NCBI GenBank assembly: GCA_050084515.1
Contig: CM114271.1
Coordinates: forward strand, 34,038,001-34,102,000
Length of the DNA stretch: 64,000 bases
Direction: 5' to 3'
DNA from: Blasia pusilla
Lineage: Eukaryota
Shown: positions 14,441-60,786 of the stretch, piece by piece
Position numbering within the stretch: the stretch's first letter is position 1
Layout of the letters: every line of letters begins with the position of its first letter
The notes under the pieces: generated by a model
The model's input: only the letters and a program-made list of their open reading frames with translations
What the model was told of the DNA's origin: nothing
Database searches by the model: none
Program-made: the position numbers and the translations under genes

Positions 14441-14446
14441 ATTTGG

Positions 14447-14830
14447 GTTGGGTCTAGGAGCAGTGCTTACTCAAAGGGATGACGAGGAGAGGGAGTTCGT
14501 TGGGGCTTACGTGAGACGATCAAACAACATTGCAGAGGCGAAGTACAGCTCCTACGAGGGAGAGTGCTTGGCTGCAGTGTGGGCCGTGGCACATTTTAGG
14601 TGTTATTTATTCGGCAACCCTTTCACACTTATCATTGATCATGAGCCGTTGAGGTGGTTGATGGAGTCCGATAAGCTTACGGGCAAGCTTGCCAGGTGGG
14701 CTCTATTACTGCAGGAGTATGAGTTTGAGGTGGTTCATAGGCCAGGTCGGCTGAACCAGGATGCGGATGGGTTGAGTCGTAACCCATGTCCGAGTCAGAG
14801 AGACGACAAAGGAGCTCGATGGCACGGAGA
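14447..14830 (+). pseudogene. RNase H of copy 1 (N-terminally truncated)
   Basis: LGLGAVLTQ...KYSSYEGECLAAVWAVAHFRCYLFGNPFTLIIDHEPLRWL...LARWALLLQEYEFEVVHRPGRLNQDADGLSR. Confidence 0.92.
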
Positions 14831-15139
14831 GAGTGATGAGGAGATGGTGCTCGGTTGGCATGCATCTGCCTATCTTTGTTGGTTGACTATGGCAGGTCAA
14901 TCACAAGTGATGACTCTAGTGGTGGGGTTGGATGATGAGTCTTTGGATTCGGAGGTTAGTGAGGAGGCGACAAGTGGTCGTGATATCCATGACGACGTGG
15001 AGGTTGTGGAGTTCTTGCCTTTGGCGTCATTAAAGTATAGTGAGTGCTAGGGGAGCGGGATCGGATCCTACAGAGAGCCAAGAGGTTCAGGTGGGAGGGG
15101 ACTCACATTTTGCGGGTATGGGGAGATGGTAGGATAAGA

Positions 15140-16230
15140 GTGGTACCTCATCCTTCCCAGCGAGCACGTGTGGTGCGACATGCCCATGAGGAGTTGGGAC
15201 ATTTCGGAGTAAAGCGTACTTACAGCTTACTCCAGGTTCAGTATTGGTGGCGTGGCATGCATACTAGGGTACATTAGTTTGTGGCCAGATGTATGGTATG
15301 TGACAGAGTGCGAGCATCCTTCAATGCTCCCACTCTGCAGTTACATCCTTTGCCGATTATGGGTTTATGTTATTGGTGGAGTTTAGACTTTGCGGGACCT
15401 TTGCCATTGACAGGACGTCATCATAGGTACGTGTTGGTCATGGTGGAGCATTTCTTCAAGTGGATAGAGTTGGTGGCACTACTAGACAAGGCGAGCGAGG
15501 GAACAGCTTATGCGCTTCTAGATCGTGTGCTTAGTCACTTTGGTGCACCGGCGGAGGTGTTGACTGACCAGGGTACCGAGTTCAGGGGAGAGTTTCAGAC
15601 CTTGTGTGATCAGGCACTGATAGATCACCGCATCACGTCCAGAGATCATCCTGAGGCGGATGGGTTGGCGGAGAGAGTGGTACAGACGGTGAAGAGAGGA
15701 TTGCCCAAGTATGGCTTGCAGTGGGGACAGTTGAGGGAGTGGGACCTACAGTTGCCATGGTTGGCTATGGGTTATCGCTTTAGTCGGCAGGCATCCTTGG
15801 CGTCATTTTCATCGTACTTTTTGCTCTTTGGGAGAGAGCCAGATTTACTTGCAGCGATTCGACGTGACATGGCGGAGGTGTTAGATCTTGATGATCCAGA
15901 TGTGTAGGTACAAGCATGTTCTCAAAGGGCATAAGTTTTTGGTAGAGTTATGCCTATGGCCTTTGAGAACTTAGCTATTGCCCAACATAAAGATACATTG
16001 AGGTATGCGACCATTCGTGGAGGAGGTTATCGTCCAGGGATTAGGAGGTTTCATCCTGGAGATTACGTATATTTATAGCAGACGGCATCCACGACGCTAG
16101 ATATCACTGCAGGGCGCACGATCCTACGTCTGCGCGAATTATTACCGACCGGAGTCCTCGTGTTGGAGGGACAGGATGGTATGGTTTGGAAGGATCATGT
16201 GCGCAATTGTGCGCCATGTCGTCTTCCGAA
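15140..16230 (+). pseudogene. Integrase of copy 1
   Basis: HHCC motif (HEELGHFG...CMVC) and DDE core (SLDFAGP, VLTDQGTEF, DGLAERVVQTVK). Confidence 0.92.
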
Positions 16231-16282
16231 CGTAGATGGGACGGTGGATCCGAGCTTGGCAGTGGTACCTGCAGGCTTGAGG

Positions 16283-16417
16283 TGTATGTTGTGCGGATCT
16301 ACGAGGGGTGCAGCCACCATGTTGGTATGTGATGGTTGTTTTTGAGGGTGGCATATGTCATGTCTGACCCCCCCTCTTGATGTGGTTCCCACGGGACGAT
16401 GGATGTGTCTGAGATGT
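16283..16417 (+). pseudogene. PHD finger at the pol C-terminus of copy 1
   Basis: CMLC...MLVCDGCF*GWHMSCLTPPLDVVPTGRWMCLRC is a C4HC3 motif with the conserved W; one TGA. Confidence 0.9.
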
Positions 16418-16490: not shown

Positions 16491-16501
16491 AGGGGGGCGA
16501 T
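16491..16501 (+). promoter_or_regulatory. Polypurine tract of copy 1
   Basis: AGGGGGGCGAT immediately before TG; copy 2 has AGGGGGACGAT in the same position. Confidence 0.75.
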
Positions 16502-17254
16502 TGTGTGATCTCCATGTATATGTATGAGTTGATTTTTGTACATGTGTGGATCAAACCGTGTGTGGGGAAGATCGGTGTTGTGTGGTGTAGATGTGACCAG
16601 CGATGTATGTTGTGTAGCGATATGTATGCGCACGACAGTTGTCACATCTGAGTAGCTGATAGGCCGAGATCTATCGTGGATAGGGTGTAGGAGCCAGCGG
16701 ACTATCTTGAGTGTAACTTTGTCCCACGGTGTCGGATGAGGTTCAAGATAGGTCCATTGTATCAGGAACGTCGTTTCTGACAACTTTCATGTTGAGGTCT
16801 TTTACAACCGGGTGACTTGTTGACCAGGTTACCCGCCCCTGTTAACCTGTGCGCGCAGGTTACCAAGGGGAGGGCTATTTTTAGGGAAAGAGCCTTTTGG
16901 CTCTTCCCAACCCTATATAAGAGAGGAAGATGGCTTTCCTAAGCCATCTTTCTCATGTTGGGCCGTTAGAGCACCTCCCTTGTATGTGTGTGAACTAGGA
17001 CTAGGGTGCTAGCATCCGGATTCCTTGATAGCACAGGGTGGACGAGGCTCGATATGCCGATGTAGATTGAGGAGTGGAGTTTTAGGCCGGGTGTGCCGTT
17101 TTTACTACTCTATTTTTGTTGTGTGATCTCCATGTATATGTATGAGTTGATTTTTGTACATGTATGGATCGACCCGTGTGTGGGGAAGATCCGTGTTGTG
17201 TGGTGTAGATGTGACCACGGTGTATGTTGTGTAGCGATATGTTTGCGCACGACA
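16502..17254 (+). repeat. 3' LTR of copy 1 with a ~136-bp terminal direct repeat and TATA box
   Basis: Starts TG after the PPT and ends GCGCACGACA. 16501-16637 is repeated at 17119-17254. TATATAA at 16914-16920. Confidence 0.75.
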
Positions 17255-17519: not shown

Positions 17520-17880
17520 AAAAAGTTGACTATCTAACAAGCTTCAATGTAAGCTAATGACATTCCATCACTCATCTCAGTGGTTGATGATTAGTGATGA
17601 TTGTGAGGGGATTCTCGAACAAATAACATTAAAAATTGGCCGCTACCCACATTGCAACTCAACACTTCCCCTCATATCAATTATACTTTATCTCCTCAAT
17701 ATTGTTTGAAGGACGTGGATATGCCCCTACAAACTCCTTCCCCTCATTATCTCTTTGAGTGAGCTTCGATACTATATCCAAAATACTCCGTTCCATACGT
17801 ACTTGAAATGGACGACCACGCATACGTCTCTTCATAATAGGCAAGGATGTTAACTTGTCTTTTAGCTCATGAAATAGTCT
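17520..17880 (-). mobile_element. Older Gypsy RT-linker/RNase H fragment related to the same family
   Basis: LKDKLTSLPIMKRRMRGRPFQV...LTQRDNEGKEFVGAY..SNN..KYN*YEGKC...CYLFENPLTIITNHQPL, homologous to copy 2 LKDRLTSVPILRRPIRGRPF. Confidence 0.8.
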
Positions 17881-18189
17881 CTTGATAATCCCCCTCATCA
17901 GGTTGTAACTTTTTAAGTCTCTTGCGAGCTTAGTTCGATGGGAGGTTTGTACAAGCATCATGACCGTCGGGACTTGTAAATCAATGGCAAATCGCACATC
18001 TTTATGGAGCCAGAATAGACTCGCACAAAATGGGCTCACAAAATGGAGTTTGCAATGGATTTGCAAAGTAGCCCCTATTGGCAAAAATGGACACGCAATG
18101 GATCTAGAGTTTGTAGTAGTATTATACGCCATGCATGTATGTGCAATAAAGACTAGATCTAATACGAAATAATGAAGCTAATCCATGAT

Positions 18190-24207: not shown

Positions 24208-27200
24208 ATGGTTGCCTCTGAAAATATTATACCTCTCTCCCCTCAGTGGCTCTTTTCAAAGCCTGCAGAAAGCAAACAACCCATCACCAGTGCGGTATAT
24301 TATCTTTAGAGTTCTTGTTGGTGGATTGCCTACATTGTCATTGTCTTCCATGACTTGGAATTGATGCAATAAGCGCTCGTTTGCACGCTTGAAGACTTTC
24401 AGTTGAACAAGGAGGCTGCTGAGTGCAGATGGATTCTGTTTCTCTTATACTTCAAGAGTTTTACTTCATACTCGTTTGCAGCTGGGTGACTTTTAGTGTT
24501 GTGCACTTTGGCCTGGCTAAGCCCCTGATGCTATCTTTACAGGAACCAGCCCGGACACCGGGGACTCCAAGTCATGGGGGAGGAAACAGTGATGCTGTGA
24601 TTAAAGAGCGTTGGCGGGGGGATGTTGGCCGTGGTGACGGGGGTCGTGATGTGGGGCGTGACAGTGTTCGAGAAGGAGGTCGTGGAGACGGTGGTCGTGA
24701 TGGTAGCCGAGATGGAGCCAGGGATGCTGAGAGGAAAAGAGATTGGTGGAGGTCCATCTCCTTGGAACGTGATGCGGACAGCAGTCGGCGTGATCGCTGG
24801 CGAGAGGAGGAGAGGGAGAACAGCACAGCTGCTCGGAGAGACCGCTGGAAGGATGGTGAGAGGGAAACTGCAGAAGCTCGGCGAGGGGAGAGGTGGGCTG
24901 AAACTAATGTTGGAAGAGATGCAACTGATCTCCGCCGCCTTCCTTCGGACAGGTGGACTGATTCTACCAACAGAGAAACGAGTTTTGAAGCTCGGCGGGA
25001 CAGCAAGTGGAGCACTCGATGGGGTCCTGATGATAAAGAGAAGGAATTCCGAAGGGAGAAGTGGGCAGAACCAGAGAAAGAAGGAGAGGGTCTCCCTCGA
25101 GAGAGACATACTCCCACTCACACTCCAACTCCCATCAATAGCAGAGAAGGTGAGAGGGAGTCAGACACAGCCACCAGAGACAGGGCTTGGCGTCCTCATT
25201 CTTTCATGAGTCGGGGCAGGGGAGAGACTCCACCTCCAGGGGCTGCTCCGCCCAAGTTTGCACCTGGTTTTGGTGTGGGCAGGGGAAGAGGAGATGGTCC
25301 TAGTGTTGGATTTGCTGCTGGACGTGGACGAGCCAACTTTTCAGGAAGTGGCCTCCTCCATGGCCCTCCTGCTGGACCCCCAATCGGTGCACCACCTGTC
25401 CCAGATAAATGGGATGGTAGTCAAGGAAAAGCTGGTGCCCTGCAAGACAATTTGTTTCGATATTCCCGCGCGAAGTTGCTGGACGTTTATAGGAAGGTTG
25501 GAAGCTCAGCAACTTTTGCGAGATATCCAGAAGGCTTCACTGAAGTCCCCCAACTGACTCAAGCCGATATCTTGGAGCCACTTGCTTTCTTCCCTCCGGA
25601 TATGGAAGAGGAGGTCGTGTCTCATCTCTTGCTTTGCTTTCCCATATGTCCAATGTTTTCCCGTTTGTTTGTTTGTGGTCACAATGGCTGAATTTCAAGC
25701 ATGATGAGCTCAGACACACCTCATCTGCTAGTGGTGAATCTCAGTTGTATATCTTCAAATTTTGAAGTCATACTTTGTTCCAATCGATTTTCTGCTCAGG
25801 TTATTCTTGAAGGTATACGAAAAGGAGAAATAGTAAGTAGTGGAGCAGTCCACAATTCAGTAGGGAAGGAGGCCGCTCTTGGGAGGATCCGAGAAGATCC
25901 AGCAAGAGGTCGTGGACGAGGTCGGGGAATAGGTACCCACTAGAACTCTTATGTTCTTTTTCAATGCTCCAAGATCAGTTTTCATGAGTGGGTGTATTGG
26001 ATGTATTAATCAATGATCATACTGAAGGGTTGAGCTATAGCAAGGTCTCATATGTATTTAGCTGCGTTTCTTCCTACAAAGGTACTTGTGGGGCGGGAGA
26101 TATCAGCTACCCTAAAGTTCAATTTTGGTGTTTAGAATGTGCCTCTAGGTGAATGTAGAGTGAGAAATCCAGATGAAAAGTTCAGTTGAAACGTCAATTC
26201 TTGAACATATTCTACCTGACCTCATGAATTGATTTCTTTTCAGTAGGTAAGGAAGATGGTCTTTTCGATAGTCATCGAGAGGATGACTTCTTCGATGCTC
26301 CTGGATTTGGGGATGTCCGCGGTGGTGATGGTGGTGTCTTCGACAAACTTGCTGAGGCTAGATATGCAGACGCAGAAGGCGGCGATACTTGGGAACCTCA
26401 CTCTCGAACTGAAAGTATTCAGGATATGGAAGGTATTGGAAGGTCCATTTTTTTTACATGTGATGCACCTGGTGATTTTGAACTGCTTATCTGATTGCAC
26501 TGACATCAGTACAAACCTTGTTTTTGGGAGCCCCGAGCCTGGTTCAAACTTGGGTAATTTGAGAGCATGAGGGTGTTTTATTATTGTGCCATATAGCAAT
26601 GTATCAATGCTGCATGTCTCAGGTGGGAGAGATGAAGGAGGTTGGAGAAGAGGACGAAGTGGAGAAGATGGAGCTGGTGGCTTTGGGAGGGAAGAATCTG
26701 GTTGGCGACAGCGAAGTGATGGAGCTTGGAGGAGAGGAAGAAATGGTGATGAAGCACCTGGTGCTTCTAAGGAGGATAAAAACTGGAGAAATGAACGTGG
26801 TGTTGCCCAGGAGGAGCACAATTGGCGGCCCAGCAGATCTGAGGAAGATGCCTTCAAAGAGGAGTTCAGTAGTCGACCTGACAGGGGTTCTGGTCAAGAG
26901 AAGGAGAAGCTGCAGGGTCACTTTGAAGACGAAAGCCCAAACTCTGTTACAGGGGAGAGACGCTGGCACTCGGAGAGTATTGTCTATCAGCGAAGCTCTG
27001 AATATGACAAAGGTGATGAGCAATTTTCGCATGGTATGTCCTTAGTAGGGAACACTGGTGCAAGACCTGTTCAGTTTCTGGGAAGCTCGGATAGAGATAT
27101 TCCAAGGTTGAACTCTCGTCATGTATCACCAGAAGATATGTCACTGTACTACACGGATCCACAAGGTGAAATGCAGGGGCCTTTCCTTGGATTGGATATT

Positions 27201-30200
27201 ATTGGGTGGTTTGAAGCTGGTTTCTTTGGTGTGGATCTACCTGTGCGTCTTGCTGATGCTCCAGAAGGCTCTCCATTTACTTCCTTGGGTAATCTGATGC
27301 CACATTTGAAGCCGAAGGCCAGAGTGCCTCCAGGATTTGATGCTCTGAAGCAGGTGGAAGAACAAGCTGAGGCTGTGTCAAAGATTGAGGTGGATGCCTT
27401 ATCGGTAAATTTTTCTCGGCATGCAAGCCTATCATCATCTGGGATGGAAACTGGAATGATAGAGACAAAAGAGTTCCAAGGTAAAGCTCCCCTGCCGAAG
27501 ATGGAAATCATGAACAGTGTTGTGGATGCATGTGACGATGGTTCTCTGTCTGGAGACACACGATCCAGTCGGGAAGAACAGTTAAGGAATCATTCCTTGA
27601 CACTCAAGAAGGTAAGAAATGCTCTGGTACATATGAGTTGTTTGTGGCTCCATGAACTTCTGGTAGTGTTATGCATGTGACGCTGGAGTGACTGAGGAAT
27701 GCTGCTCTTTTGGGTTTTGGTTTTGACTGTGGAGAGTGATTCCTGTTTCTTTTGGCAGATATACCAGTGGACAGGCTTTTTGGCCATAGGGATGGACCAG
27801 GGATTGAGAGGACTTATTCAATGAGGCGTCGGATGCCTGCTTTTCCTCGAGTGGAATCTGAAGAACTGGAGTCTGTGAGACATCCTTCTCCAAGTCTTTT
27901 CTCACAGTGGCCCGGGCAAGATGGTGAACCCTCGACTTCAGGAAGTGCCGAGGCTTCAATGTCAATGCCCAACCACCCGTCCTTCAGAGTTGCACCATCA
28001 TCCAACCATCATCCAGTCTCTAGGTCTGCAGACTTAATGCCAATGATGCAAGGAGCCACCAGCCATGTACCTCTTGGACCTCAGCCTGAGCGCGCTTGGC
28101 CTGACCTCATGCGTTCTCTCTCAGATGCACCATCTCCTCATCACAACCTTCCACAGGGTGCGGGTGTTGACCATTCACATATTCACCCCCTGGAGATGCA
28201 ACATCTACAACGTTTGGTTTGATGCAGCCCGGGGGACTTCCATCCATCCAGCGACAACTCTCACAACCTTCCCCTCTTCCTCTAAGTCAGCAATTGCCAC
28301 CAGGGGGGCCTGCTCTAGAACAACTTCTTCGTCCTGGTCTCTCACGAGACCTGCAAACATTGAATATGCTACAGCAGCAGCAACATCAGCAACAGGCTCA
28401 GCAACCCCCTTTACCTATTCCTCCCTCAGGCCCTGTCTTGGATCAGCTTTTGAGACTTCAACAGCAGCAACAGCAGCAATTGCCACCTCAGGTCTTGTTG
28501 GAGCAGCTTTTGAGGCAACACCAGCAGAATCACTTTGATCACATGCATCGGCAGGCTGCAGGGGCTCCAGTTGATCAACTTCTCATGCGGCAAACTCATG
28601 AGCTGGCACAACCCCCACAACATCCTCTAGGCCCCCGTGGTGCAGGATTTGATCAGATGTATCAAGCAAGGCATCAGCCTGCACCAGCAATTGAACAACT
28701 TCTGCGGCACCGCCAACAGCAAGAACAACAACAGGTATATTGGTCTAGCGTCCCATTTTCATGGCCTTCACATGTTGCTCTGTTGCTATGTCAAAGCTTC
28801 CTCGGGAGGTGTAGGTTCAGGATGAAACACCCTGAATGTTCTGTTAGTCCAAGCTGTGGAAAGAGGTAGTAGAGTATAATTGAAGTATGTTGATACTCCC
28901 CTGGTTCCTGTCTTGGTGTTTTAGCTCAACCAGTTCTCACTGTGATTTTCTCAATCATGACAGCAAGATGCCTTCAGACACACTTCGGTTGTTGTTTGTG
29001 TACCCATAAGTGCTTCTGTTTCGCAGTTGCTACTTCTGTGAAGCAAGGATTCTTAGGTGATTCCTAATGGTCACCTCTCACTATGAACTCACACTTTGTC
29101 TCAATGTAATCTGTAACTCATCGGACTCTGTTTTTTGCTCTGTTTCACTGTCAGTTCTGTTTTCATTGAGTGGCACCAGGATTATTCTTACAGTTCAATT
29201 GCATCTTGAATTCTTCTTTTCTAGGACCTGATCCTTTTTCTCCGTCAACTGGAAGATACTTCTGGCCACATTCACAAGTATGTTCCTTTCAAGTGTGTCT
29301 GCTGTTCCAAACCCATTGCACGGGGGTTATCACTATTCCGCTTTCCTATGTAGGTTACATACAAAGCAACGGTTTACAGCCACATGGCATGCCTCCATAT
29401 TCATTGGGCGAATCATTCAGTTGTGGATTTTGAACTTCACTCCTTTCACTCCACCGCATCTTCTTTCAAAAGACTTAGTCTGCTGGTTTGTTGAATTGGT
29501 TGATCAGAAATCACCAATGTTGTGGGGCTGTCTGTTTATTCAGTCACTTTCTTGAGGAGAAGATGACAAGTTTAGTTTTGAGACCAAAGTTGGTTCAGTA
29601 CTTTTCTCCTTTTTTTGGTGATGTGTTGATGTACAACACCAAACACTGCTGGAAAAATGCGAGGAGGTTCTGGATCTATTAGGGTGGTAATGATATCAAT
29701 TCTGCAATTCTATCTTTTCAACTTCTGGCTTACGAAGCATTTCTCATTTGTCATCCCTCTTTCAAACTCATGACGGGCATGGAGTGTGTAGAGGAGTGTA
29801 GGTATTCCTTGCAAATGGGGGTTGTTGAATCTGTACTTTAATCATAATGGAACTTTTCCTCCTTAGTGTTCTGGTTTTGTGTAATCTCCTTCCTGTTTGG
29901 TATGTGTTGAAGCTGAACTCACCTTCTCACGTGTTGGTTTCCATCGTGTGAAGTTACTAACTAATCGTCATCTTTCCTGAGCTTCATTTTCATGGTTTGA
30001 CATTATTTGTGGAACTCACTCCAATTGAAATTACCGGTCCTTCTAAGGCTTTCCGAACATCTGGATGCTGGAAGTTCTCTGCATTAGTTTCTTGCTGTTA
30101 ATTTGTTGTGCCAATGGATTAAGCTCTACTAGGAGGCTTGAAAAGAAACTACCATCCCTCTGACCTTAAGAATGGTTTTACCTTCCAGGTAAGGCAATTT

Positions 30201-33200
30201 GGCCTTTCACAGGCACAAAGACCTGGTGTAGATGAGATGCGAATTTCTGGCGTCTGGGAAGTGGATGAATTTGGCCATTTCGTGCGGACTCAAGCTCAAC
30301 CTCCTCTGAGGCCATTCGATACTTTGAAGTCACAACCACAGCAAACTCAGCAGCAGCAGCAACAACAACAACACCATATGCCGAGCTCCTTGGGCATGTT
30401 GCAAGGTTCCATGCAACATCCTCAAGTTCAAGGTCCTCCTCAGCCAGAAAGCCAAGGAGTTTTTGGATATGAGTCTGCCACAAGTGTGAGAGGTCCGCCT
30501 AGTTTGTTTGACCCTAATTTGGCAAGAATTGAGAGGAATTTGTCAACTTTGGGGGGGTCTCAAAGAAAGGACACTGGAGTTGCTGCTGAATTAGTGGCAC
30601 AGCTTCAAGAGCAAAGAGCAAGAATTGAGAGGGCGACTAGTATCTCATTTTCTGAGTCCTCTAGGCCGTACTCTTTAGGCTTCCAGTCACAATCTCAGGA
30701 TAGACAATCTGATGCTGGATCTCTAGGTTGGACAGTACCTGCAAGCAGCTCATCAACAGATTCTGATTCACCAGCAAAGGTAACTGAGTGCCATTCAGGT
30801 CAGCAGGATGATGTGCCCAGTGTTGATGGACATCAATCTCAGCTGGAAGGACTTGGCTGGCAATTTGAACCAGACTCCCTTTCGGAAACTTCTACCTACC
30901 TTGAAAAGGGCAAAGAGAGTAGCAGCTTGCCTGGTCATTCCAAAACTTTTGGAGGGCAAGCTTGGAATGATTCTCCTGATCTCGTGCGTCAGGAGCAGCC
31001 CAGCCCAGGGCTTCCTGATTCAAATCTTGACTCCACAGTTCCTCAGGCTAAAGCCAGTACTTTATCAGTAGGTATTGTCTCTGATCAGCAGCTAACAACT
31101 GATAGTTGGTCCTCAGTCCACGAAACTGATCTTTCACCTCAAAACTCTGTGCCAGACATGACCCAGATGCCCAGTCACCCAGTTTGGAAGCCTGCTGTTG
31201 TGCCAAAGCCAAAGTCCTTAATGGAAATCCAACAAGAGGAAGCAGAGAGGAGAATCGCGGAGGAGAAGGCTGCATCAGAAGTGGCTGCACAAATAGGCCC
31301 CTTGAGTAACACTGGAAGTTCTACTAACTCTGGACCCTGGGCTGCCTCTGCAGCTATGCCCCAGACAAGGTCACTAAGAGAGATTCAGGAAGAGGAGGGC
31401 CGCAGAGCTGCCGCTCTTGGTCATTCTGGTTCGACGACTTTTGCCCCTCCTCTCACTTCTAGTGGTAAGGGCGAAGCTTCTTGGACACTGGCATCTCAAT
31501 CGTCAAGTGGTGAAAAGTCAAACTTGCGTGATGTGATTGCAGAAGAGGTGCAATTGATTGCCCCCAGTAAGAAGGGTGGGGAAGCTCCTACTTCTAATGT
31601 TTTGAGTCGACAGGTGTCTGCACCTGTGCCCGTGCCCGTGCCTGCACCTATGGCTGCTGTAACACCACCTCAGGCCTCTCCAACATTTGATGACTCTGAT
31701 TTTGTGGAGCCCAAAGAATCCAAGAAGAACAAGAAACGGGCCTCTAAAGCAAAGGGTGCTGTAAGCAAGGCGGCTCCTACTTCCACTCCAGAGCCTGTGC
31801 AGATCTCACCATCAGCATCCTCCAAGAACCCCGGAGCCCGACAGACTCAACATGATATAAGCAAAGAGGTTCTACCTGCTCCTCCAGTACCCTCTTTGGC
31901 AGATTTTCTGCAGCTGAAGGAAGAAGTGACAGCCTCTCAGCCTTTACCTGCTTGGTCAGTGGATCTAAGCAAGCAAGCAAAGTCTGCCAAATCCTTGAAG
32001 GAAATTCAAGAAGCGGAAAGGCGAGCAAGAGAGGAGCAGGAAAGGCAGTTCCGGGCTGAAGTGGTGCAAGTTTCTGCTCCTGTCAAGCCTATAATAGCTC
32101 ACATGCCTAGTGGATCAGGTGCATCTGCCTGGCAGCGCCCTTCTGTGTCCCCATCTCCACAAACTTCGAGTGCTGTCCAATCCAGCTTTGCAGCATCTGT
32201 AGCTGCTCCACCGTTGGCTTCAGCCAATAGCAGTTCTCGATCAAAAACAGGTTTCTATGAAGATGATGATGAGTTGTTTTGGGATTACAGTGAAGATGTG
32301 ACTCTTAAGATTGGTGCTGTCAAGCAAGCAACGAATTCTGAACGGTAGGACCAAACTAGCACTGTCCATTTTCCAAAGAGTCTTCAAAATTGTGGGAGTG
32401 ATTGAGACGAGAAGTTTTTTAAATAATTTATTGTGCAAGCATAGAGCACTCGAATGTTCTCCGTTCTAGTTGTTTCTAGAGAATGGGTGTGTGACCAGTG
32501 ACTGCCTGAGTTATGTGTTTGTAGCCAGTCTTACACTTACCCAGTGCTTCACTTGGTATGGTGCAGGCCAGAATTTCCGTCGCTGATTGCAATTGGGAAA
32601 GGAACAGCTGCTAAAATCCCGGTGGTTAAAGTTCCTGGCTCAGCAGCACCAACATCAGCACCTGTATCTGCTGCTCCTTCAACAGTACCAGTCTCTGCCT
32701 TTCGACAGGCAACTACCGGGGTGGCCTCTCCTCGTGTTAGCCCTATGGAGTTCCCTACTTTATCTGCTACTTTAAGTACAGTTGGTAAGGCAGTGGTTGT
32801 AAAACCCAAGAAGCAGCAGCATCCCAACATGCGAGCCAATGAAGGTGCATCCTTGAGTCAATCCTGTGTAGTGGCCTGACCTTGCTAGGGTAGTGGGTGT
32901 ATTGGCTCTGGAACATCTGTTAATATCTTGTCAGTGGATGTATTTCAACTCCTTTTTTGTTTAGATGCGGCGCCTAAAGTATGCTTGCACACAGCCCAAT
33001 TCTTGCCAAACAGGCCTTTGTCGATCTGAAGGATAAGGTGCCTCTGTGGTCAGAAATGCATATGGTAGTACATAACTAGCTGGAATTTTTGTGATGAACT
33101 GTTGTCTCTCTGAGCCAATTATTTGTGGCTATTGCAGACCTAGCAGCAACTTCTGTGCAGTATGCAGCCATGTCAACTACGGAAGGGAAAGCATTTAGGC

Positions 33201-49248: not shown

Positions 49249-49561
49249 TGTCGCGCGCATACACATTGTTGTCACTAACTACAAACACATAACATAAGAC
49301 ACCATAGTCACCTATAGGATCTGAACATCGAGATCATCATGTACCAAAATATTTGCGATTAATTCAAAAGCATTTCAATCTCTACCTCTCTCTCATGTCA
49401 AACTAAACGCACTCTCCTAATTAATGAGAGGTTTGGGTCACTCAAAAGGCAAGGAGGACAAGAGCTCTATCGCCTCATACCAAAAGGTTCAACAATGAGC
49501 TCCAGAGATCTATCTCTTTAGGTATACCCCTTCCCTCTCTCAAACTCTCTCCATAGTAACC
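49249..49561 (-). mobile_element. Degenerate solo-LTR-like relative of the copy 2 LTR
   Basis: On + it begins TGTCGCGCGCATACACA, like 51774. 49385-49561 aligns with 51960-52144 (ATGTCAAAC...CACTCTCCTAAT...AAACTCTCTCCAT.GTAACC). Confidence 0.75.
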
Positions 49562-50700: not shown

Positions 50701-51224
50701 TGACCTATATCTTCTCCAAGTATTTTGCAAGAACATTAATATTACGTAAGAGAAGGTATAGGTAGAAATTTTAGCCATAGAAACCAGATTTATGGTGAAA
50801 GGTTTGGCTCTGAAGATCTTAGTTTCCAAAATCCTTTTGTCACATCTTTTATATTGGAGTGGAGAGTACGTGCTCAACGTATCTAGAAATAGTATGAAAG
50901 TAAGACATTGGTGGCGGGAGGTTAAGGATAATATATTGTAGAGGTAGAATACATTAAGGCATAAGTTTTTCCCTATTTTAGAATCATTTGGAGCTATTTT
51001 GAGGAACTTGCTATTTTGTGTAAGTTCCCTATTTTTGGTTTATTTGACTTATGATTTTGGGCATGTCATGCGTACACAGCTCACCAAGGAGAGAATTTGA
51101 GGAAGGAAAAGAGTGTATACATCAAGGAGAGAACGCTTATAAGCTAATTCTCTCTTTGTTAAACCTCTTGCCATGAGACAAGATATTTATGGTGCTCCTT
51201 GTGCCCTATGAGTAATCAAACCTC

Positions 51225-51773: not shown

Positions 51774-52225
51774 TGTCGTGCGCATACACATCGCTACACA
51801 ACATACATCGTTGTCACCGAACACACACACAGACATGCACGATCCCATGCTAACTCATGGCATCCAAACAATGAGACAAGAAGTACTAAAATATCTCCAA
51901 TAAAATAAGATCTAATCTATCTCACAACACCATAGTTCTCACATGTGTGCACTCTTACATGTCTCTCTCAATGTCAAACCAAACCCACTCTCCTAATGAG
52001 AGGCTTGGGTTACACACACAAGGCAAGCAAGACCATAACTCCTCCGCCTCATGCCAAGAGGTTCAACAAAGAGAGAATGAGCTCTCAAGCTCTCTCTCCT
52101 TGAGGTATATCCCTCCCCTCTCCCAAACTCTCTCCATGGTAACCGAACACACACACCAACACGCACGATCCCATGCTAACTCATGGCATCCAAACAACGA
52201 GACAAGAAGTACTAAAATATCTCCA
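51774..52225 (-). repeat. 3' LTR of copy 2 with an internal 86-bp direct repeat
   Basis: TG after the PPT; ends GCGCACGACA like copy 1. 52142-52227 is repeated at 51816-51901. Confidence 0.75.
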
Positions 52226-52419
52226 ATCGTCCCCCTAATTGGTGGTTATGTCCCCCTAACTCCAGATAGCCCTTTATCCCTACCTACCACGACATACATT
52301 TCTATGACGCTAAGAGCATAAAGGCCAGGTGCTCATGTGGCCCCATCGTTAGTCGCCTTCCTGTCATCCATGTCATAAAAAAAGTCGAAATCGAAACCTA
52401 CCTAGTATCTCCTCTATGT

Positions 52420-52550
52420 ACATTTGGGACACATCCATCCCGAGGAACCCTAGTGAGAGGTGGCGTCAGACATGCCATATGCCAACCTCTCGAACATCCA
52501 TCACAGACTAGCATCGTGGCCGTACCACGAGCAAAATCACACAACATACA
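52420..52550 (-). pseudogene. PHD finger of copy 2
   Basis: CMLCDFARGTATMLVCDGCSRGWHMACLTPPLTRVPR, then after a frameshift GWMCPKC. Confidence 0.9.
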
Positions 52551-52599
52551 ACGCAAGCCTGCAGGAACTACTGCTAAGTTTGGATCTACTATACCATCA

Positions 52600-53720
52600 A
52601 TGTTAGGAAGATGATATGACACACAATTACGCACATGGTCTTTCCATACCATACCATCGCGTCCCTCAAACAAGAGAACACCAGATGGCAAAATGTCCCG
52701 CACTCTCAAGACAGTGCGCCCTGTAGTCACATCCAACGTCATCGGTGCCTTCTACTATAAGTAAACATATCTCCCTGATGAAACCTCCAGATAGTTGGTC
52801 GATAACCACCACCCGAATAGCCGCATACCTCAACATATCCCAATGCTGCGCAATCGCCAAGTTCTCGAACGCCATGGGCATCACTCTCCAAAACAACTCA
52901 GCCCTCTAAGAATATGCTCGCATCCATACATCTGGGTCGTCAAGGTCCAACACCTCACCAGTATCTTGAGGAATGGCCGGAGGTAAATCTGGCCAAGAGC
53001 CAGAGAGCCAGATTATGGCCGAGAGCCAGATTTACCTCCCGCCATAAAGTAGCAAGTACGATGAAAAAGACGCTAAGGATGCCTGCCTGCTGAATCTGTA
53101 TCCCATTGCCAACCACGGAAACCGGAGGTCCCAATCTCCTAGGTGAACTCTCTGCAAGCCATACTTGCATAAATCCCTCTTCAGTGTCTGCACAACTCTC
53201 TCCGCTAATCCATCCGCCTCAGGATGATCTCGCGAAGTCGTGCGGTGGTCGATCAGCGCCTGGAACTCACCTCGAAACTCGGTACCTTGGTCTGTCAACA
53301 CCTTAGATGGTGCACCGTAATGACTTGGCACTCGATCTAGGAAGGCATATGCTACTCCCTCACTCACTTTGTTAAGCAATGCAACCAACTCGATCCACTT
53401 CGAGAAGTGCTCGATCATCACCAACACATAACGACTGTGACGCTCCGTCAAAGGCAAAGGTCCTGCAAAATCCAAACTCCATCTATACCCTAAGCCATGA
53501 TCGGTAATGGATGCAAATGTGGAGTCGGAGAATTGAACGATGCTCGGACCCATTCACACACCATGCACCTGGTAACAAACTGCTGAAGGTCAGTCTGCAT
53601 GCCTCGCCACCAATAATGAATCTAGAGCAAGCTATACGTCCGCTTCACCCCAAAATGACCAAACTCCTCGTGGGCATGCTGCACTAGTCGTGCTCTTTGC
53701 AAAGGATGCGGCACTACGCG
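52600..53720 (-). pseudogene. Integrase of copy 2
   Basis: HEEFGHFG, SLDFAGP, VLTDQGTEF, DGLAERVVQTLK. Confidence 0.92.
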
Positions 53721-54029
53721 TACTGTGCGTTCCTCCCAAACCCTCAAAACATGTGTCCCCTCCCAACGGAACCATCTGGCCCACTGTAGGATCCGATCCA
53801 ACTCTCTAGCACCCACTGTGCTCGCGACGCTGCCAGTACGAAGGTACTCCAAGACTACTACATCATCATGAATATCTCGGCCACTTGTCGTCTTCTCACT
53901 GACCTCGGGATGCAAGGACTCTCCGCTAGACCTCGCCATCAAAGTCTCCACACTCTGGCTCTCCATATCCAACATGCCTAAATAGGCTGACGAGTGTCAT
54001 CTTGGCATTGACTCCTCATCACTCTCTCC

Positions 54030-54494
54030 ATGCCATCGAGCTTCAGTCGCATCTTGTTGACTTGGGCATGGGTTACGACTCAACCCATCTGCATCTTGGT
54101 TGAGCATCCCAGGTCTATGTACCACCTGAAAATCATACTCTTGCAGCAACAGAGCCCATCATGCAAGCTTCCCTGTAAGCGTGTCGGACTCCATCAACCA
54201 CTTCAGTGGTTGATGATAAGTGATGATGGTAAAGGGGTTGCCGAATAAGTAACACTTGAAATGCGCGATAGTCCACACCGCAGCCAAGAACTCACCCTCA
54301 TACGAGCTGTACTTTGCCTCTGCAACGTTGTTCAAGCGGCTAGCATAAGCCACCACGAACTCTCTACCCTCATCATCATGTTGGGTGAGCACTGCTCCAA
54401 GCCCCAACATGCTCCAATCTGTGTGCAAGTGGAATGGACGCCCCCTGATCGGTCTCCTCAAGATGGGCACGGACGTCAACCTGTCCTTGAGCAA
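54030..54494 (-). pseudogene. RNase H of copy 2
   Basis: FHLHTDWSMLGLGAVL...YSSYEGEFLAAVW...DADGLSR. Confidence 0.92.
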
Positions 54495-54673
54495 CTAAAA
54501 TGCTCACTCCTGCTCATTCCCCCACTGCCACTTGTGATCCACCTTGGTCAGCAAGGTTAGTGGCTTTGCAATGGAACTGAATCCATTCACGTACCGCCGA
54601 TAGAAGTTCGCAAATCCCATGAATGCGCGAACACGACTTACATCTGTAGGGCGTAGAATGCGTGAGATAGCCT

Positions 54674-55460
54674 CTACCTTCTTCTGCTGAACACCAAGGC
54701 CCCCTGGGTATATATTGTATGACCCAAGTACTCAATCTGGTCGTAGAAGAACTTGCGCTTGCCTGGATGTAGCTTCAGCCCATGTAATTGCAATCGTCGA
54801 AACACCTCCTCAAGATTTCGCTCATGCTCCTCAATCGTGGCGCTAAAGACTACAATGTCATCAATATAACACTTACCAAAATCCAGACCAGCCAAGATCC
54901 TATCCATGACCCTCTGAAACTCAGCCGGGGTGTTCTTTAACCCAAATGGTAAGAACCACCACTGGTACAAACAATCCTTCCCGCGAGGATCGATGCCCCA
55001 AAATACCGTCTTCTGCCTATCCTCCAATCTGATAGGGAGCTGATGGTATCCCGCTCGCAAATCCAATGAAGTGAAGACCTTTGCGCGACCAATCGCATCA
55101 AAGATCTCCTCAAGGGTGGGCATGGCATACCTATTGGACTTTGTCTGCCGATTGATAGGTCGGTAATCCCCACACATCCGCATATCCGTCTAGTTGCCAT
55201 GTACATCCTTCTTGGCGGGCATGATAGTGGCAGATGCATACTCCCCATGTGACATCTCCACTAGTCGTACTCCGACCAAGTCCTGGCTCCTACTCTGAAT
55301 TAGAGCCCTCTCCATATCAATGTACATGTAGGATTGTCAAAAGATCGGCGTATCACTCGACAACTGAATGCGGATCCCGAGTCCCTTTAGCGTACCCAAA
55401 TCCTCCATGCTAAATGCAAAGTAGCTCCTATAACTCATGAGGAACTGATGTATCAAGTGC
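54674..55460 (-). pseudogene. Reverse transcriptase of copy 2
   Basis: RMCGDYRPIN, FTSLDLRAGYHQL, LPFGLKNTPAEFQ, YIDD (54857-54868), IEYLGH. Confidence 0.95.
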
Positions 55461-55859
55461 CGCTCTCCTCTTGTCAACTTAGGGCCCATATTTGGCTCCC
55501 AAATCTCCATCGCGACTACGATAGGACTCTCCGGCGCGGATATCGGTGGTTGCTATGGTGCAACCCCGTCTCGAACGACAAAACTTGGCCGCTCTAGTGC
55601 AGCCAACTGCAAACTCTGATCTCCTCCACATGCCGTGCCCGGAACGACGCTCGATGTTGTGGCTATCATCTCCTAGCGTACCTGCAAAACATCCCAAGAA
55701 CTCCAAGGGTGTCTCTCCCGATCTCCCTTGGTGTGTAGATCTCCTCGAGTCTTGCCCCTAGCCACTACCTCCACCGTCCGGTAGGCATGGGGCTCACCAA
55801 CGCAACCGCTGTAATCTGTCGCGATCTCATACGGCGCTGCTCAGCCACTCCCAAGTTGA

Positions 55860-56690
55860 GGATCCATGTCAAGCAGTTCATGTGCATTTCCTGGCCTAAG
55901 GCATGGCGTCGTGCTGCCTCTGACACTAACGCTACTGCCGTCACTCCTGTGGGAAATCCCATCGCTCGCTCTCTCTCGTCGGCGTTGGGCTCCACCAACC
56001 GTTGAACCTGGTCATCGCAAACCAAGCCAGGACCGGCCTCCTTGTATGCATAGGAGGCGGGAAAAATCACAAACGTGGGCAAGGTTGCTCGCGGCCTGCC
56101 TACCCTGTTGACCACAGTCAACGGTGGACAATCATTGTGCCTCATTGCCTGTGGTTGATGACCTGGATCGAGAATGGAATCCACTAACAAATGGGAGGGG
56201 CGCTCCACTCTCGCATACGCCCTCCGTAACACCGCATGGGACACCAAATTGGTCCACCATAGACGCGGGCGATGGGCTCTAGAACCTACACTCGCTGTAT
56301 CCAAGAACACTACTGAGCCGATCCAGGCACGCATCTGATGAGCGCTTGTCACCACCCGTGACCTGGAGTCTCCTAAGATCGGCACATTTTCTAGAATGTA
56401 GGTTGGAGAACGAGACTGATGCTCCTGCAACTACCGTAAGACCCTCAACATCTCCCAAAACAACCTCGACCGAGTGTTAGCCAACCCGCTGCCTCGTCCA
56501 ACACTCGATTGGCCCTGATAAGGCCAACCAGCAATGACCATATCAATGGTTCCTACCGGCTCTAAGTCATGCGCCCCCAACAACGAAATATCCCTCGATA
56601 GGGAACTCTGGTACCCCTGTACTGCGGACGCAGATAATAAGTCGGGAAAACATAGGTGTAATTGGGCCATATGTCGTAGTGAGACGCGGT
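55860..56690 (-). pseudogene. DNMT3-like C5 cytosine methyltransferase domain in pol of copy 2 (motifs III-X)
   Basis: RDISLL (III), IDMVIAGWPYQG (IV), SRLFWEML (V), YILENV (VI, 56383-56391), SRAHRPRLWWTNL (VIII), ERERAMGFP (IX), RRHALGQ (X). Motifs I-II deleted. Confidence 0.9.
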
Positions 56691-56969
56691 CTGCACGTGC
56701 TCATCTGCCAATCGTCAAAGCTTCTCAGTCGAGCCCCACAACGGCACCTCTCTTCCACGGAATGATGCGGCTACCAGAACACTCCTCTCCATAGAAATGT
56801 CAGCAAGGGGAGTATCCTCTGCATGGACATGTCCTTCAATCAAATCACTAGGCCAAGTGATGGCACTGCTAAATGATGCTAAGGTCGCCACCTCTCCTGG
56901 CCGTCGCTCGATCACTGCACCTGTGAATCGAACGGGTAATGAGATAAGACGCCCATCACTTGATTGCCA

Positions 56970-57295
56970 TCCTGGTCTGTAGGACGTTGACTCCTCCCAA
57001 TAATCCAGGGAAAACCCCATCGGGTATAACACTGCTCCACCAACCAAGACGTCATAGGACTTTGCATCAGTCACTATCGCCTTGGCTCGCACTAGAGACT
57101 CATATGTAGGATGTCCCGGGCGAATCCTCACCACGACCTCCTGTCGGGTGATATACCTCGTGGTACTCTCTCAACCCAAGGATGTATGTATCCGGAATGG
57201 ACAACGCTCCACATCGGCTCTCGTCAAGCCCAATCCTCTGAATGACGCTTTCCCCAACATCAGGGGTTGCGCTCGTGAATCCAACAAGACGCGCT
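56970..57295 (-). pseudogene. Aspartic protease of copy 2
   Basis: RVLLDSRAQPLMLG (DSG changed to DSR) and YDVLVGG. Confidence 0.85.
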
Positions 57296-57439
57296 GCGGA
57301 CTAAAAGCTCTACCTCCGAGACTCACCAACTGGAAGACCTCTCCTCGGTTATCTAGCAAACAACACTAGGAGAAGCCATGGCCTCCATCTGGGCAACCCC
57401 GCACATCCAACCATGATCCTCCATATCTCAAGCTGCTCC

Positions 57440-59031
57440 CTATGATGTCGATGCCACGGATCCGGCATCGGGTAATCTCAATGCCATAGCGGCAATCTGC
57501 TCCTGTATCTGAGCTGCCATCCTAGCCTCACGTCTGGCATCTCCCTGGATGCGTCTTGGTGGTAGGACTCTACCTCCTCCATGAGCAGCTCCACCACCAT
57601 GTTGGGCAACTCTTGCTCCTCGTTTCCCAACGGGACCACCTTGTGCACGATCTCTAGGCCTACTTGGACCGGCTACTCGCTCTGGTGCCCTCTCTAGCCC
57701 TCGGTCCGGACGTAACTCAGGATGTAAACTGAAACACTTGGCGCGTGTATGACCATACCTCTGACAATAGTCATATTGATCACCTCGTGGTGCATCACCA
57801 TCTCCTCCTGCATGCTGAGGCACACGTCCATGACCCTGACGAGTGCAATCGCGCTGATGATGGGCTCCACCACATGACCAACAAGTAATAGTAGGCGGCT
57901 GCTGGTCAGCTGCATATGAAGGCGCAGGTCTCTGTGACACGGCCTCTCGGTATCCTCCCTGAGCTCGTGGTGCCACAATCGACCTATCTTGGAGTCCACG
58001 TCGCTGCACAGGTGGTGCAGACAATCGCGACTGCTCTCGCCTAGAACCCATGGTGGCTACGCTCTCCTCCGCCATGTTGCGCTCAATGTTCTCAGCAGTC
58101 CTAAAAATATCTCTCAACGTAGGGGAGGTGTTCATAAGAAGCATCCCCTCCCGCACCCGTGTCCACAGGATCCGGTCCAGCATCGCGTACCATGAGTGGA
58201 TAGCCTAGGCTCTGTCACCCCTTGAGTGACGTTGATCAACCAACACAAGCGAGTGTAAGCCTCACGCAAACTCTCACCCGGGCGCCTCTGGAAGTCGTGG
58301 ATGCTACGCAATTTCTCTGGCCGTACCCCCTGGTAGCTCGTCCTCAACTCAACAAAGAACTCAATCACAGGGCTGAACCTGGGACAAACCCGACTAGACG
58401 GTGCAACTGCTCCCGTGCGAGTGACCCCTCCTAAAATGTCACCAGTGGAAGAGGAAGTAGCCTCTCCTGAATCCTCCTCCTCATGTAGGAACGGCTCCGT
58501 CCATGACACATAATGTGGGTCATAGTAGAGCCTCCACGCCTCGATCTCACGTGCATATCTCTGAGAGAACTCATGGTTATCGTCTATGGGCTCCCCCTCT
58601 AAATGCTGGAATATACTGTTCCATGCTGTAAACGGGTTGAACTCTCTAGAGTTCTTGGCTTGTTGGGAGTCTCACCAACTCCTAAACTCTGCTATGAAAT
58701 CGTGCAACTCAATCGTACCTACTGCACCTGAAAACCTACGCGGTCCTCTACCCCAGTCGTCCATCTCGTACGCTCAACTGGTAGGACCACTCACAATGTG
58801 TGGCGATGTGCTCACAAACTCCTCTACACCCTCCCCCTCGTCTGACGATGACATAGAAGGAGGTCGAGGTGGTCCCTCACGTGGAGACCCTCGGAACCTC
58901 GCGCCACTCCGCGTAAAACCTCTAGAGCTACTCTCAGGTTCACCACCTTGCCTCTCAAAGTCCCGAACGGATGCCGTGATGACCCTCGTACCTCTTACCC
59001 GATCACTCTCACGTGGCGAGTAATCCCTCAA
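57440..59031 (-). pseudogene. gag: gag of copy 2
   Basis: FQRRPGESLREAYTRL, CWSCGGAHHQRDC, YDYCQRYGHTRAKC; colinear with copy 1 gag. Confidence 0.85.
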
Positions 59032-60786
59032 TCACTCATCCCAAACATGCGGCACTTGATCTACACTCTCCCTCCCCGAGACGTGTTACGTGCGGCAACA
59101 AGCGGCGTGGTGCGGCAAATCGACCAGGCTATCATCTCATCGACAACCTACCCTCAACTCCGGACATCCCACATAGGTCTATGTCCCCTTAACCTTATAC
59201 ATGAATGATGCTCTCAGCATCTACACAACCCAATATCCCCAAATAAACTATCAAAATCCTAGAATCCCTCACTTGTGCAGGATAAAGGACCAGAATGGAT
59301 AACTTGAACACATGTCTATGTCGCTTCTCAACAATTGCAAATCTCGACCCCAACACGGTCGTGGAGAAAACTCCTCCAATCAACAAGTCATACTCCTCCC
59401 GTACTGACACTGCTCAAAACTGCTCGATAGACAGTGCGGTTCCAGCGGAACGGTGCGTCGTTGCAGGCGACACGGAACGGTTACAAACGGCGCGGCCCTC
59501 GATGGTGGGATGCGGCACTCGGAAGCATACCCTCAATAAAAAATAAACCCAAACTCTGCTCCACAATGATGATGCAGCTCCGCGATCGAGATGGTGTGGT
59601 GCGGCCACAAGCGGCACGACGCGGAAATCGGCGGCGTGTTGCGGCTACGGGCGTCACGACACGGTTCTCGATCGTCGTCGAGCGGCTACCAATCACAACA
59701 TAGCAGCATGAAATCAAAACTCAAACACCATAACCGGAGGTCATTTTCCATCACTGATTGATGACGAAACTGTGATGACGGTGGCGGCCAAAACAAAGTA
59801 CGTGGTGGCGACGCAAGTCAAAGAATCAACGAACGTCGTGGAAGATCCTCCACTCTGTAACGACGGCAATGGCAACCAAAGGGTGGAAAATGGATGGTGG
59901 ACCATTGACGGTGACTATGACGGCGATGGCCGCCGCCGGCGTGGCGGTTGGTTTAGGGTTTGAACAATTTAACCCTAAAAATCGCCTAGCAATGGAAGTT
60001 TTGCAAGATTGACCATTACTTTTTGCTTGCAACTCCAAATTATGTACTATTTGTTGCACAGCGTGCACAACTTCATGATGTATGATAGCATCAAAAAATA
60101 TTTAGAATCAGACATTCCACTAAAAACTTACGGGGACTGTCGTAAAGCCCAATGTCTCTTTCTCCTACACAAAATTTGGCAGCGCTTCCGCGCTGATTTC
60201 TCCCAACAAAAATGTAAAACCTATAAAAATACAAATCAACAAGCTACATGGTGCTCTTGAGAGCACCGGCATGGGGCAACCCACCCCCATAATCAATCTC
60301 TATCAGAAATTGGGTAGCGCTTCTGTGTGCCACTCTTCCACACGAAAAATTGGCAAATGCAATTAACAATCAAAGCAGCCTTTGCTCCGGTGAGCTCTCC
60401 CATGAGCAGCTGAACGGGGAACACGGTCCCCAACCTTCAAAAACAGCGAGTGACCAGCGAGCTCCTCCATGAAGCTCTCTCACAACACTATAGTTCTCAC
60501 ATGTGTGCACTCTCACATATCTCTCTCAATGTCAAACCAAACCCACTCTCCTTGACCTTGGCAGATCTCTTCTTGCCTTTTTTTGATTGACTGCCTTCTT
60601 TTGCCAAAGTGATTATTCTTGCCAAAATGACCCACTTACCCTTGGCCTACTGGTGGTTTTATGTAGTACCACTTTAGAGAGTTTCTCCTCTCCTCCTCTT
60701 AACTAGCCACATGAAAAGACTCTAACCTTAAGCCTTGCAAGTGGAAGAATTAGGCTGGGATCTAAGACCCAACTACTCACACATTT

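Follow-up and report, generated by a model that had tools for sequence, protein, structure and literature searches.

A DNMT3-like methyltransferase in decayed Ty3/gypsy-type retroelements of the bryophyte Blasia pusilla

The DNA described here is a stretch of 64,000 nucleotides (nt) from the bryophyte Blasia pusilla (GenBank assembly GCA_050084515.1, contig CM114271.1, positions 34,038,001–34,102,000 of the forward strand; below, the window), in which two copies of a Ty3/gypsy-type retroelement, diverged from each other and both decayed, carry the coding sequence of a C5 DNA methyltransferase (MTase). Hosts use the same enzyme class to silence retrotransposons, and the question at stake is how an element would benefit from such an enzyme. 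It is very probable that the two copies are dead and belong to separate lineages within a bryophyte family of the Ty3/gypsy type, with a single gag-pol frame that holds a DNMT3-type MTase between the protease (PR) and the reverse transcriptase (RT), as well as a PHD finger behind the integrase (IN), and that the MTase was part of the working element and not passive cargo.

Two methyltransferase segments with complementary deletions

Copy 1 lies on the + strand at about 10.7–17.3 kb (coding part about 10.7–16.4 kb) and copy 2 on the − strand at about 51.8–60.6 kb (coding part about 52.4–58.9 kb). The domain order, according to the listing of open reading frames (ORFs) and Pfam, is gag, zinc knuckle, PR, C5 DNA methylase, RT, RNase H, IN, and PHD finger, and the order gag, PR, MTase, (RT), RNase H, IN, PHD is the same in both copies. 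The assignment to Ty3/gypsy rests on copy 2, where RVT_1, RNase H, and rve follow each other in pol order behind a zinc-knuckle gag. Alignment between the DNA of the two copies is confined to their coding parts, with 67–73% nt identity. When pieces of copy 2 were used in tblastn, the MTase was found at two sites of the window only, whereas the RT of copy 2 matched only copy 2 itself, leaving copy 1 with none. In copy 1 the MTase is in frame with PR (ORF 13251–13823).

The MTase segment of copy 2 (55765–56700, − strand) comprises motifs IV to X, as judged from its translation, its matches to Pfam PF00145 (E 1e-7, above the curated cut-off) and to DNMT3A chains (E 2.2e-7), and its alignment to relatives. 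It is a single frame interrupted by one TAG (56433–56431), with motif IV at 56532–56512 (including a Tyr codon at 56520–56518), the ENV motif at 56391–56383, motif VIII at 56286–56248, motif IX at 55992–55951, and motif X at 55899–55876. The segment starts with ...ARADRVSLRH; motifs I and II are gone. In an affine alignment the missing part corresponds to 13516–13747 of copy 1, that is 232 nt, with the junction between 56696 and 56695 (feature 56684–56700, − strand); since this length is 3n+1, the frame changes there. Independent support for the deletion comes from public sequencing runs: related copies, represented by 27 RNA reads and 10 contigs, cease to match copy 2 from 56684 on. Translated on the element strand, the unmatched ends give ..SEAFAPERD.., which corresponds to where the missing segment begins in copy 1 and the relatives.

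In copy 1 the MTase segment (13530–14432, + strand) covers motifs I to VIII, which were placed by alignment to copy 2 and relatives and are spread over three frames. Motif I, VLDLSGGISIGLA, is located at 13653–13688 and motif II, YVERDE, at 13728–13745; these are followed by motif IV at 13912–13932, with a Tyr codon at 13924–13926 directly before a TAG at 13927–13929, by ENV at 14053–14061, and then by motif VIII. Four in-frame stops and two frame changes, which the earlier note on this DNA did not remark, interrupt the segment. At its end (junction 14433–14446, + strand) position 14432 aligns to 56011 of copy 2 and 14447 to 54408, and the gap between them, equivalent to 56010–54409 of copy 2 (1602 nt), takes away MTase motifs IX–X, RT in its entirety, and the beginning of RNase H. 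The C5 MTase motifs thus stand in canonical order in both copies, as I, II, IV, VI, VIII in copy 1 and IV, VI, VIII, IX, X in copy 2.

The earlier note had described these deletions as complementary, with copy 1 lacking motifs IX–X and copy 2 lacking about 230 bp with motifs I–II, equivalent to 13520–13750 and joined near 56690, and this description holds, although in copy 1 the same gap also takes the RT and the start of RNase H. The strings that it quoted from the two copies (TTG GAG AAC and CTA GAA AAT; YILENVPLLGDTRARV and YILENVPILGDSRSRV) are exact. Its suggestion that the two copies together allow reconstruction of the whole enzyme is, in turn, not supported, as their MTase proteins are 56% identical and the catalytic cysteine is absent in both.

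The MTase of copy 2 has 157 database protein matches of comparable length and 35 that are longer, with identities reaching 65%, and the named sources are all bryophytes: Marchantia polymorpha, M. paleacea, Riccia sorocarpa, Calypogeia fissa, Sphagnum troendelagicum, and S. fallax. Gene models of 1150–1330 residues in Marchantia polymorpha carry gag-PR-MTase(-RT-RNase H) in one frame. In addition, 72 related loci were recovered from metagenomes; 63 of them form one family with a mean nt distance of 13.6%, and they are mostly decayed, while one locus (L004) has no stops in PR, MTase, RT, or RNase H.

The family is also represented in the sequencing runs of the source organism. In three of its DNA runs, 0.23–0.32 of the sampled words are present, and between 8,241 and 47,102 contig pieces per run fall on positions 54600–57200 (2.6 kb of copy 2) at a likeness of at least 80%; the family is highly repeated. 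In an RNA run of the same organism, of which about 6% of the reads were examined, 1,946 reads map to this interval: none at a likeness of at least 99%, 46 at 95–99%, 677 at 90–95%, and 1,223 below 90%. The transcripts therefore come from relatives, and not visibly from copy 2 itself. First-mate depth is 46–190 on the + strand versus 0.6–13.6 on the − strand; if the library is of the usual type, relatives are transcribed across the MTase as RNA of − polarity, in the sense direction of the family.

A profile of the family compared with the PDB gives the best scores for DNMT3A (3e-21), DNMT3B (5e-19), and DNMT3C (1e-18), followed by plant DRM (2e-12), M.HhaI (5e-6), and DNMT2 (4e-5), while DNMT1 is not among the 54 PDB sequences matched at E ≤ 0.01. 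An AlphaFold model of an intact relative (P0003) has a mean predicted local distance difference test score of 69.5, and in a Foldseek search with this model all of the top 50 matches listed are DNMT3A, DNMT3B, or DNMT3C (E 2e-14; TM-score 0.72–0.78, normalized by the target). The domain is non-rearranged, with motif I before motif IV, unlike that of DRM. By profile and predicted fold, then, the MTase is closer to DNMT3 than to DNMT1, DRM, DNMT2, or the bacterial enzymes. It shares with the solved host DNMT3A, DNMT3B, and DNMT3C not only the best profile and fold matches, but also the motif order I to X and a short target-recognition region. It differs from them in an identity of about 20%, in the lack of an adjoining PWWP or ADD domain, and in being embedded between a retroviral-type protease and an RT.

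Selection on the methyltransferase and loss of its catalytic cysteine

Selection was assessed by Nei–Gojobori counting on ungapped, in-frame alignments of the two copies, from which codon pairs with stops were dropped, with a 95% bootstrap range and wrong-frame controls. The ratio between the proportions of nonsynonymous and synonymous differences (pN/pS) in the MTase is 0.39 (0.31–0.47) over 228 codons, and 0.30 in the core comprising motifs IV–VIII. For the other regions it is 0.41 in gag, 0.37 in PR, 0.25 in RNase H, 0.18 in IN, and 0.24 in the C terminus of IN with the PHD finger. Shifting the MTase columns by one or two bases yields 0.77 and 1.89, respectively, and all shifted controls fall at 0.67–3.1. 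The identity of the MTase at the three codon positions is 0.62, 0.81, and 0.43. When decay of the C>T/G>A kind is masked by ignoring every transition, second-position transversions relative to those at four-fold sites amount to 0.22 in the MTase (0.14 in its core); the values for RNase H, IN, gag, and PR are 0.31, 0.10, 0.35, and 0.27, respectively. Compared with RNase H and IN, the MTase is the less constrained, and it ranks with gag and PR. These results support the proposal of the earlier note that the MTase was under purifying selection and was not neutral cargo; the contrary pattern that the note had named, with a ratio of nonsynonymous to synonymous rates (dN/dS) near 1 in the MTase and well below 1 in the other pol domains, did not appear when the comparison was run.

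If the MTase were neutral cargo, selection would have kept only the frame open between PR and RT, and the conservation seen would stem from short divergence or chance. The MTase does change faster than RNase H, by a factor of 1.1–2.8 at the protein level across deep lineage pairs, and in the metagenome family of 63 loci its dN/dS is about 0.58, with 21 stops among the shared variants, as would suit such a passenger. Frame-keeping, however, cannot yield a second-position identity of 0.81–0.89 versus 0.43–0.44 at third positions, and it leaves the transversion ratio of 0.14–0.22 unexplained. Nor would cargo account for the elements ENV, RPRLWWTN, EPNADERERAMGF, and GQ.MD.N, which are near-invariant across lineages at 32–37% identity. 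Finally, the segment that links the zinc knuckle to PR (about 12.03–12.85 kb in copy 1), which belongs to the same gag-pol frame, shows no meaningful alignment between the copies, so that an unconstrained coding stretch became unrecognizable over the same time. We consider the neutral-cargo explanation highly improbable.

A separate possibility, that constraint on the MTase had been relaxed specifically in the lineages of the window, was rejected, since the ratio of MTase to RNase H protein divergence is ordinary for this pair (2.10, with 1.06–2.79 in 55 other lineage pairs).

Several points weigh against a selected MTase in a working element. Synonymous sites between the two copies are saturated (pS 0.63–0.78; dS 2.2), and the corrected dN/dS of 0.15 is unreliable, so that the ratio can be said only to be well below 1. 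The test within this genome is that of one sequence pair. The aligned segments were picked by their protein similarity, which biases toward a low pN, although the bias is mitigated because the alignment spans 234 of 236 contiguous codons (13725–14432) and because of the wrong-frame controls. Most of the variation in the 72 metagenome loci appears to be neutral: in pairwise comparison, dN/dS is about 0.58 in the MTase, 0.32–0.46 in RT, 0.36–0.43 in RNase H, and 0.72–0.94 in PR, and the contrast in nonsynonymous to synonymous variants between shared and singleton classes is modest (MTase 0.64, p = 0.02; RT 0.45, p = 4e-4). Such weak signals are expected if most differences postdate the death of the copies; the singleton spectrum is not dominated by C>T/G>A and the loci are mostly decayed, so that they have little bearing on the copies in the window. 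The strand assigned to the transcripts presumes the usual library type. In the accessible part of the paper that describes the related element of the alga Klebsormidium nitens (de Mendoza et al. 2018, PMC5890265), activity is shown for no Gypsy-borne DNMT3, and the K. nitens domain, when assayed in yeast, gave an inconclusive result. Lastly, neither copy in the window has the catalytic cysteine of the P-C-Q motif, though the family has it.

The codon at this position of motif IV is TAT in both copies (the two Tyr codons located above), a point that had passed unremarked. Because both copies are hit at the same catalytic residue, they do not provide an intact active site even when taken together. 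The corresponding codon is TGC or TGT in all 71 related loci with data (of 72), although the codons near it are often damaged, including a TAG at the next codon in 10 of the 72. In related proteins that include motif IV the residue is Cys in 75, Tyr in two, and Phe in one (n = 78). Overall, about 10% of the positions conserved in the family are changed in the two copies (6 of 61 and 7 of 67), and parallel decay of the cysteine codon is the most likely explanation.

It is also conceivable that the change from Cys to Tyr is older than at least one of the two insertions, in which case there would have been transposing lineages with a dead MTase kept for a non-catalytic role, either as a DNMT3L-like partner of a host DNMT3 or as a DNA-binding module. 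The shared TAT would be accounted for in this way, set against TGC or TGT in every scored locus despite the frequent hits on neighboring codons and against Cys in nearly all database proteins with the motif. In a tree of PR, MTase, and RNase H combined, both copies are placed together with L004 in a clade of SH-aLRT support 98, and a constraint that makes them sisters is not rejected (p-AU 0.79), and the low pN/pS of the motif IV–VIII core would be compatible with a module that stayed under selection. Conversely, the copies are not joined in a tree of the MTase alone, and the codon of L004, which belongs to that clade, is TGC. An independent origin of Tyr is seen in P0016 and P0017, two decayed proteins with Cys-bearing sisters, and with about a tenth of the conserved positions changed in each copy, two parallel G>A hits are improbable yet possible. 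A long non-catalytic history would not lead one to expect ENV and RxR intact in both copies, as they are, and position 56519, like the TAG stop of copy 2, is absent among the 40 read-mapping rows listed, of 791. The trees thus give no settlement on whether the copies are sisters: the MTase-only tree does not join them and the concatenated one allows it. We judge an old loss of this kind to be unlikely. The same doubt applies to its broader form, in which the cysteine would have been lost before the lineages split or independently in transposing masters, with purifying selection persisting on a protein that binds DNA or recruits host DNMT3; this, too, appears improbable.

The very probable course of events, with a selected MTase in a working element, is as follows. 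The lineages diverged to synonymous saturation, with amino acid changes in the MTase filtered about as in gag and PR and less than in RNase H and IN. After insertion, the two copies decayed separately, copy 2 losing the 232 nt with motifs I–II and copy 1 the 1.6 kb with motifs IX–X, RT, and the beginning of RNase H. Stops and frame changes were gained in both, and the catalytic codon became TAT in each.

Known systems, relatives, and a possible role of the enzyme

Retrotransposons carrying DNA methyltransferases (DNMTs) have been described in dinoflagellates and in one charophyte alga. The algal example, KnitGypsy-Dnmt3 of Klebsormidium nitens (PMC5890265), has a Gypsy-borne DNMT3 reported to be under purifying selection (Ka/Ks < 0.2), and the legend of Figure 4c in that paper describes Gypsy domains combined with DIRS-like repeats of the form A-coding-B-A-B. 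The elements of the window can be likened to it by its published description. Both have a non-rearranged Dnmt3-type DNMT inside a Gypsy pol frame, a DDE integrase, and a streptophyte host, as well as terminal A-coding-B-A-B repeats, seen here in copy 2 and in part (B1 and B2) in copy 1. As to the purifying selection reported for the algal DNMT, the uncorrected pN/pS of 0.39 is here likewise well below 1, the corrected 0.15 being unreliable at a saturated dS of 2.2. Unlike in K. nitens, the host is a land plant, and the copies in the window are dead and without the catalytic Cys.

SymbioDIRS-Dnmt3 of Symbiodinium, as described in the same accessible text, also includes a Dnmt3-type domain in a pol polyprotein, with a domain order that varies among sublineages, and shows Ka/Ks < 0.2 with a saturated Ks. 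It is, unlike the elements described here, a DIRS element with a tyrosine recombinase, whereas these carry an rve (DDE) integrase with a zinc-binding domain. In that text, de novo CG methylation in yeast is shown for the Symbiodinium domains only. The EpiLTRs of Cymbomonas and Euglena (bioRxiv 10.64898/2026.05.21.726589, accessible part) are, likewise, long terminal repeat (LTR) elements with both a cytosine DNMT and a chromatin-reader domain. Their enzyme, however, is related to DNMT4 and placed at the 3′ end of pol, accompanied by an adenine methyltransferase and a chromodomain, whereas the bryophyte family has a DNMT3-like enzyme at the PR/RT position, a PHD finger, and no adenine methyltransferase.

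A Gypsy-borne DNMT3 is thus already known from Klebsormidium, and what the window adds is the extension to land plants, including a tractable model. The evidence for this extension of the Gypsy-DNMT3 type is the window itself and its named relatives, from Marchantia, Sphagnum, Calypogeia, and Riccia. No description of such elements in bryophytes was found in the literature searched, which did not include subscription papers and in which the 2018 paper and the bioRxiv preprint were the only texts to come up. Physcomitrella, with 9 DNMT genes, is the sole bryophyte in the survey of 96 genomes in PMC5890265, and the accessible text reports no such elements there; the bioRxiv text, in the part available, mentions "streptophytes (Gypsy-DNMT3)" in passing. 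A practical consequence is that these transposon copies will inflate both the number of DNMT genes counted in bryophytes and the DNMT3 phylogenies built for them.

As to the role of the enzyme, the MTase would be made within the polyprotein and would travel with RT and IN. It could then methylate the new cDNA of the element itself or the DNA at the insertion site, and recognition of histone H3 tails by the PHD finger may direct where integration occurs. Such a mode of action follows what has been proposed for KnitGypsy-Dnmt3 and SymbioDIRS-Dnmt3, and by analogy with those elements the MTase may be enzymatically active, with one of these substrates and with a benefit to the element. Since Marchantia polymorpha is tractable and has long open gene models of the family, the role of the enzyme is testable there.

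The position of the MTase varies among more distant relatives. In P0154, P0157, P0173, P0152, and P0156 it is found in the gap between RNase H and IN or at the N terminus, as opposed to the gap between PR and RT in the bryophyte clade; P0154 and P0157 have the order RT-RNase H-MTase-G-patch-IN-PHD and P0156 the order MTase-RT-RNase H-IN. A C-terminal PHD finger is recognized by Pfam in P0152, P0154, P0157, and P0173, and a PHD-like stretch of Cys and His residues was seen by eye in P0156.

The metagenome family groups with Sphagnum proteins. Three of the metagenome loci (L002, L003, and L053) compared with P0128 of Marchantia polymorpha show 88–90% amino acid identity in RNase H and 69–73% in the MTase. 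This RNase H identity is high for a moss–liverwort pair, and may reflect horizontal transfer or a constraint that is very uneven. Across all metagenome loci (L001–L072), stops occur at a density of 0.64 per 100 codons in RT versus 1.34–1.45 in MTase, PR, and RNase H, and the lower density in RT goes with a smaller fraction of codons that are one step from a stop (0.049 versus 0.073–0.083).

Terminal repeats and other features of the window

The ends of copy 2, in the orientation of the element, show the arrangement A-coding-B-A-B, and not two plain flanking LTRs. Repeat A1, on the 5′ side (60472–60552, − strand), is 81 nt long and 94% identical to A2 (51914–51994, − strand). Repeat B1 (52139–52227, − strand; 89 nt), which directly follows a purine-rich TTAGGGGGACG run, is 94% identical to 51813–51901, the B2 repeat; the latter, together with a 44-nt terminal piece (51817–51774), occupies 51774–51901 (− strand). 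The 3′ end of copy 1 (16501–17254, + strand) consists of B1 (16501–16637), a spacer of 481 nt, and B2 (17119–17254), the two repeats being 95% identical over 137 nt, and here, too, B1 is directly preceded by a G-rich purine run (TAGGGGGGCG). A 5′ partner (repeat A1) was searched for in copy 1 and not found, so that only B1 and B2 are seen in this copy. A check by eye for a target-site duplication around copy 2 gave no match and is not conclusive.

What the copies have in common at their ends is limited to a piece of 44–45 nt (91–93% identical) and another of 46 nt (80%). The LTRs had been described as largely unalignable, which is correct inasmuch as only these two short pieces are shared; the ends are, however, not plain LTRs. 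The first of the two pieces, ending in ...GCGCACGACA (16593–16637, 17211–17254, and 51774–51817), is thus better conserved between the copies than their coding DNA, and may be a cis-acting terminal sequence.

The remaining domains of copy 2, all on the − strand, were located as follows. The gag and zinc-knuckle region extends over 57440–58932 (ORFs 58671–58132 and 58204–57440) and is 44–64% identical to gag of copy 1 in amino acids by tblastx and tblastn. The PR region (56763–57359) corresponds to 12847–13442 of copy 1 with 45–54% amino acid identity in tblastx and aligns with the protease of the Marchantia polyprotein P0128. RT is found at 54674–55260 (Pfam RVT_1, E 1.1e-28), RNase H, identified in an ORF, at 54159–54494 (76–79% amino acid identity to copy 1), and IN at 53032–53996 (Pfam rve, E 1.3e-9; 73–81% to copy 1). 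The PHD finger (52398–52751; Pfam PHD, E 2.4e-7) has PDB matches to the PHD fingers of KMT2D, KAT6A, KDM5, DPF3, AIRE, and UHRF1.

In copy 1, on the + strand, the gag and zinc-knuckle region is located at 10720–12033 (ORF 10720–11520) and the PR region at 12847–13442, both delineated by tblastx to copy 2. These are followed, behind the MTase, by RNase H at 14447–15032 (Pfam RT_RNaseH, E 2.5e-26), IN at 15053–15907, and the PHD finger at 16058–16390, a part that was aligned to copy 2 by blastn (72.9% over 2024 nt) and tblastn.

Both copies stand out from the AT-rich flanks by their G+C fraction (0.50–0.55 versus 0.35–0.40). The GC skew of the + strand is +0.21 to +0.28 in copy 1 (10001–16000) and −0.14 to −0.24 in copy 2 (52001–60000), which in each case corresponds to an excess of G over C on the sense strand of the element.

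Other traces of related elements are present in the window. An RNase H piece of a third, inverted element lies right behind copy 1 (17536–18177, − strand), inside an open frame of 166 residues, and is 54% identical to copy 2 in amino acids. Short remnants at 6378–6577 (+ strand), 49387–49561, and 51083–51177 resemble the 3′-terminal regions of copy 1 (74–79%) and copy 2 (78–79%), and are probably leftovers of more members of the family. Between the two copies, the region 24423–32348 (+ strand) contains several long open frames of the same direction that resemble exons of a host gene, one of which (26571–27680) includes a GYF domain (Pfam, E 1.8e-10).

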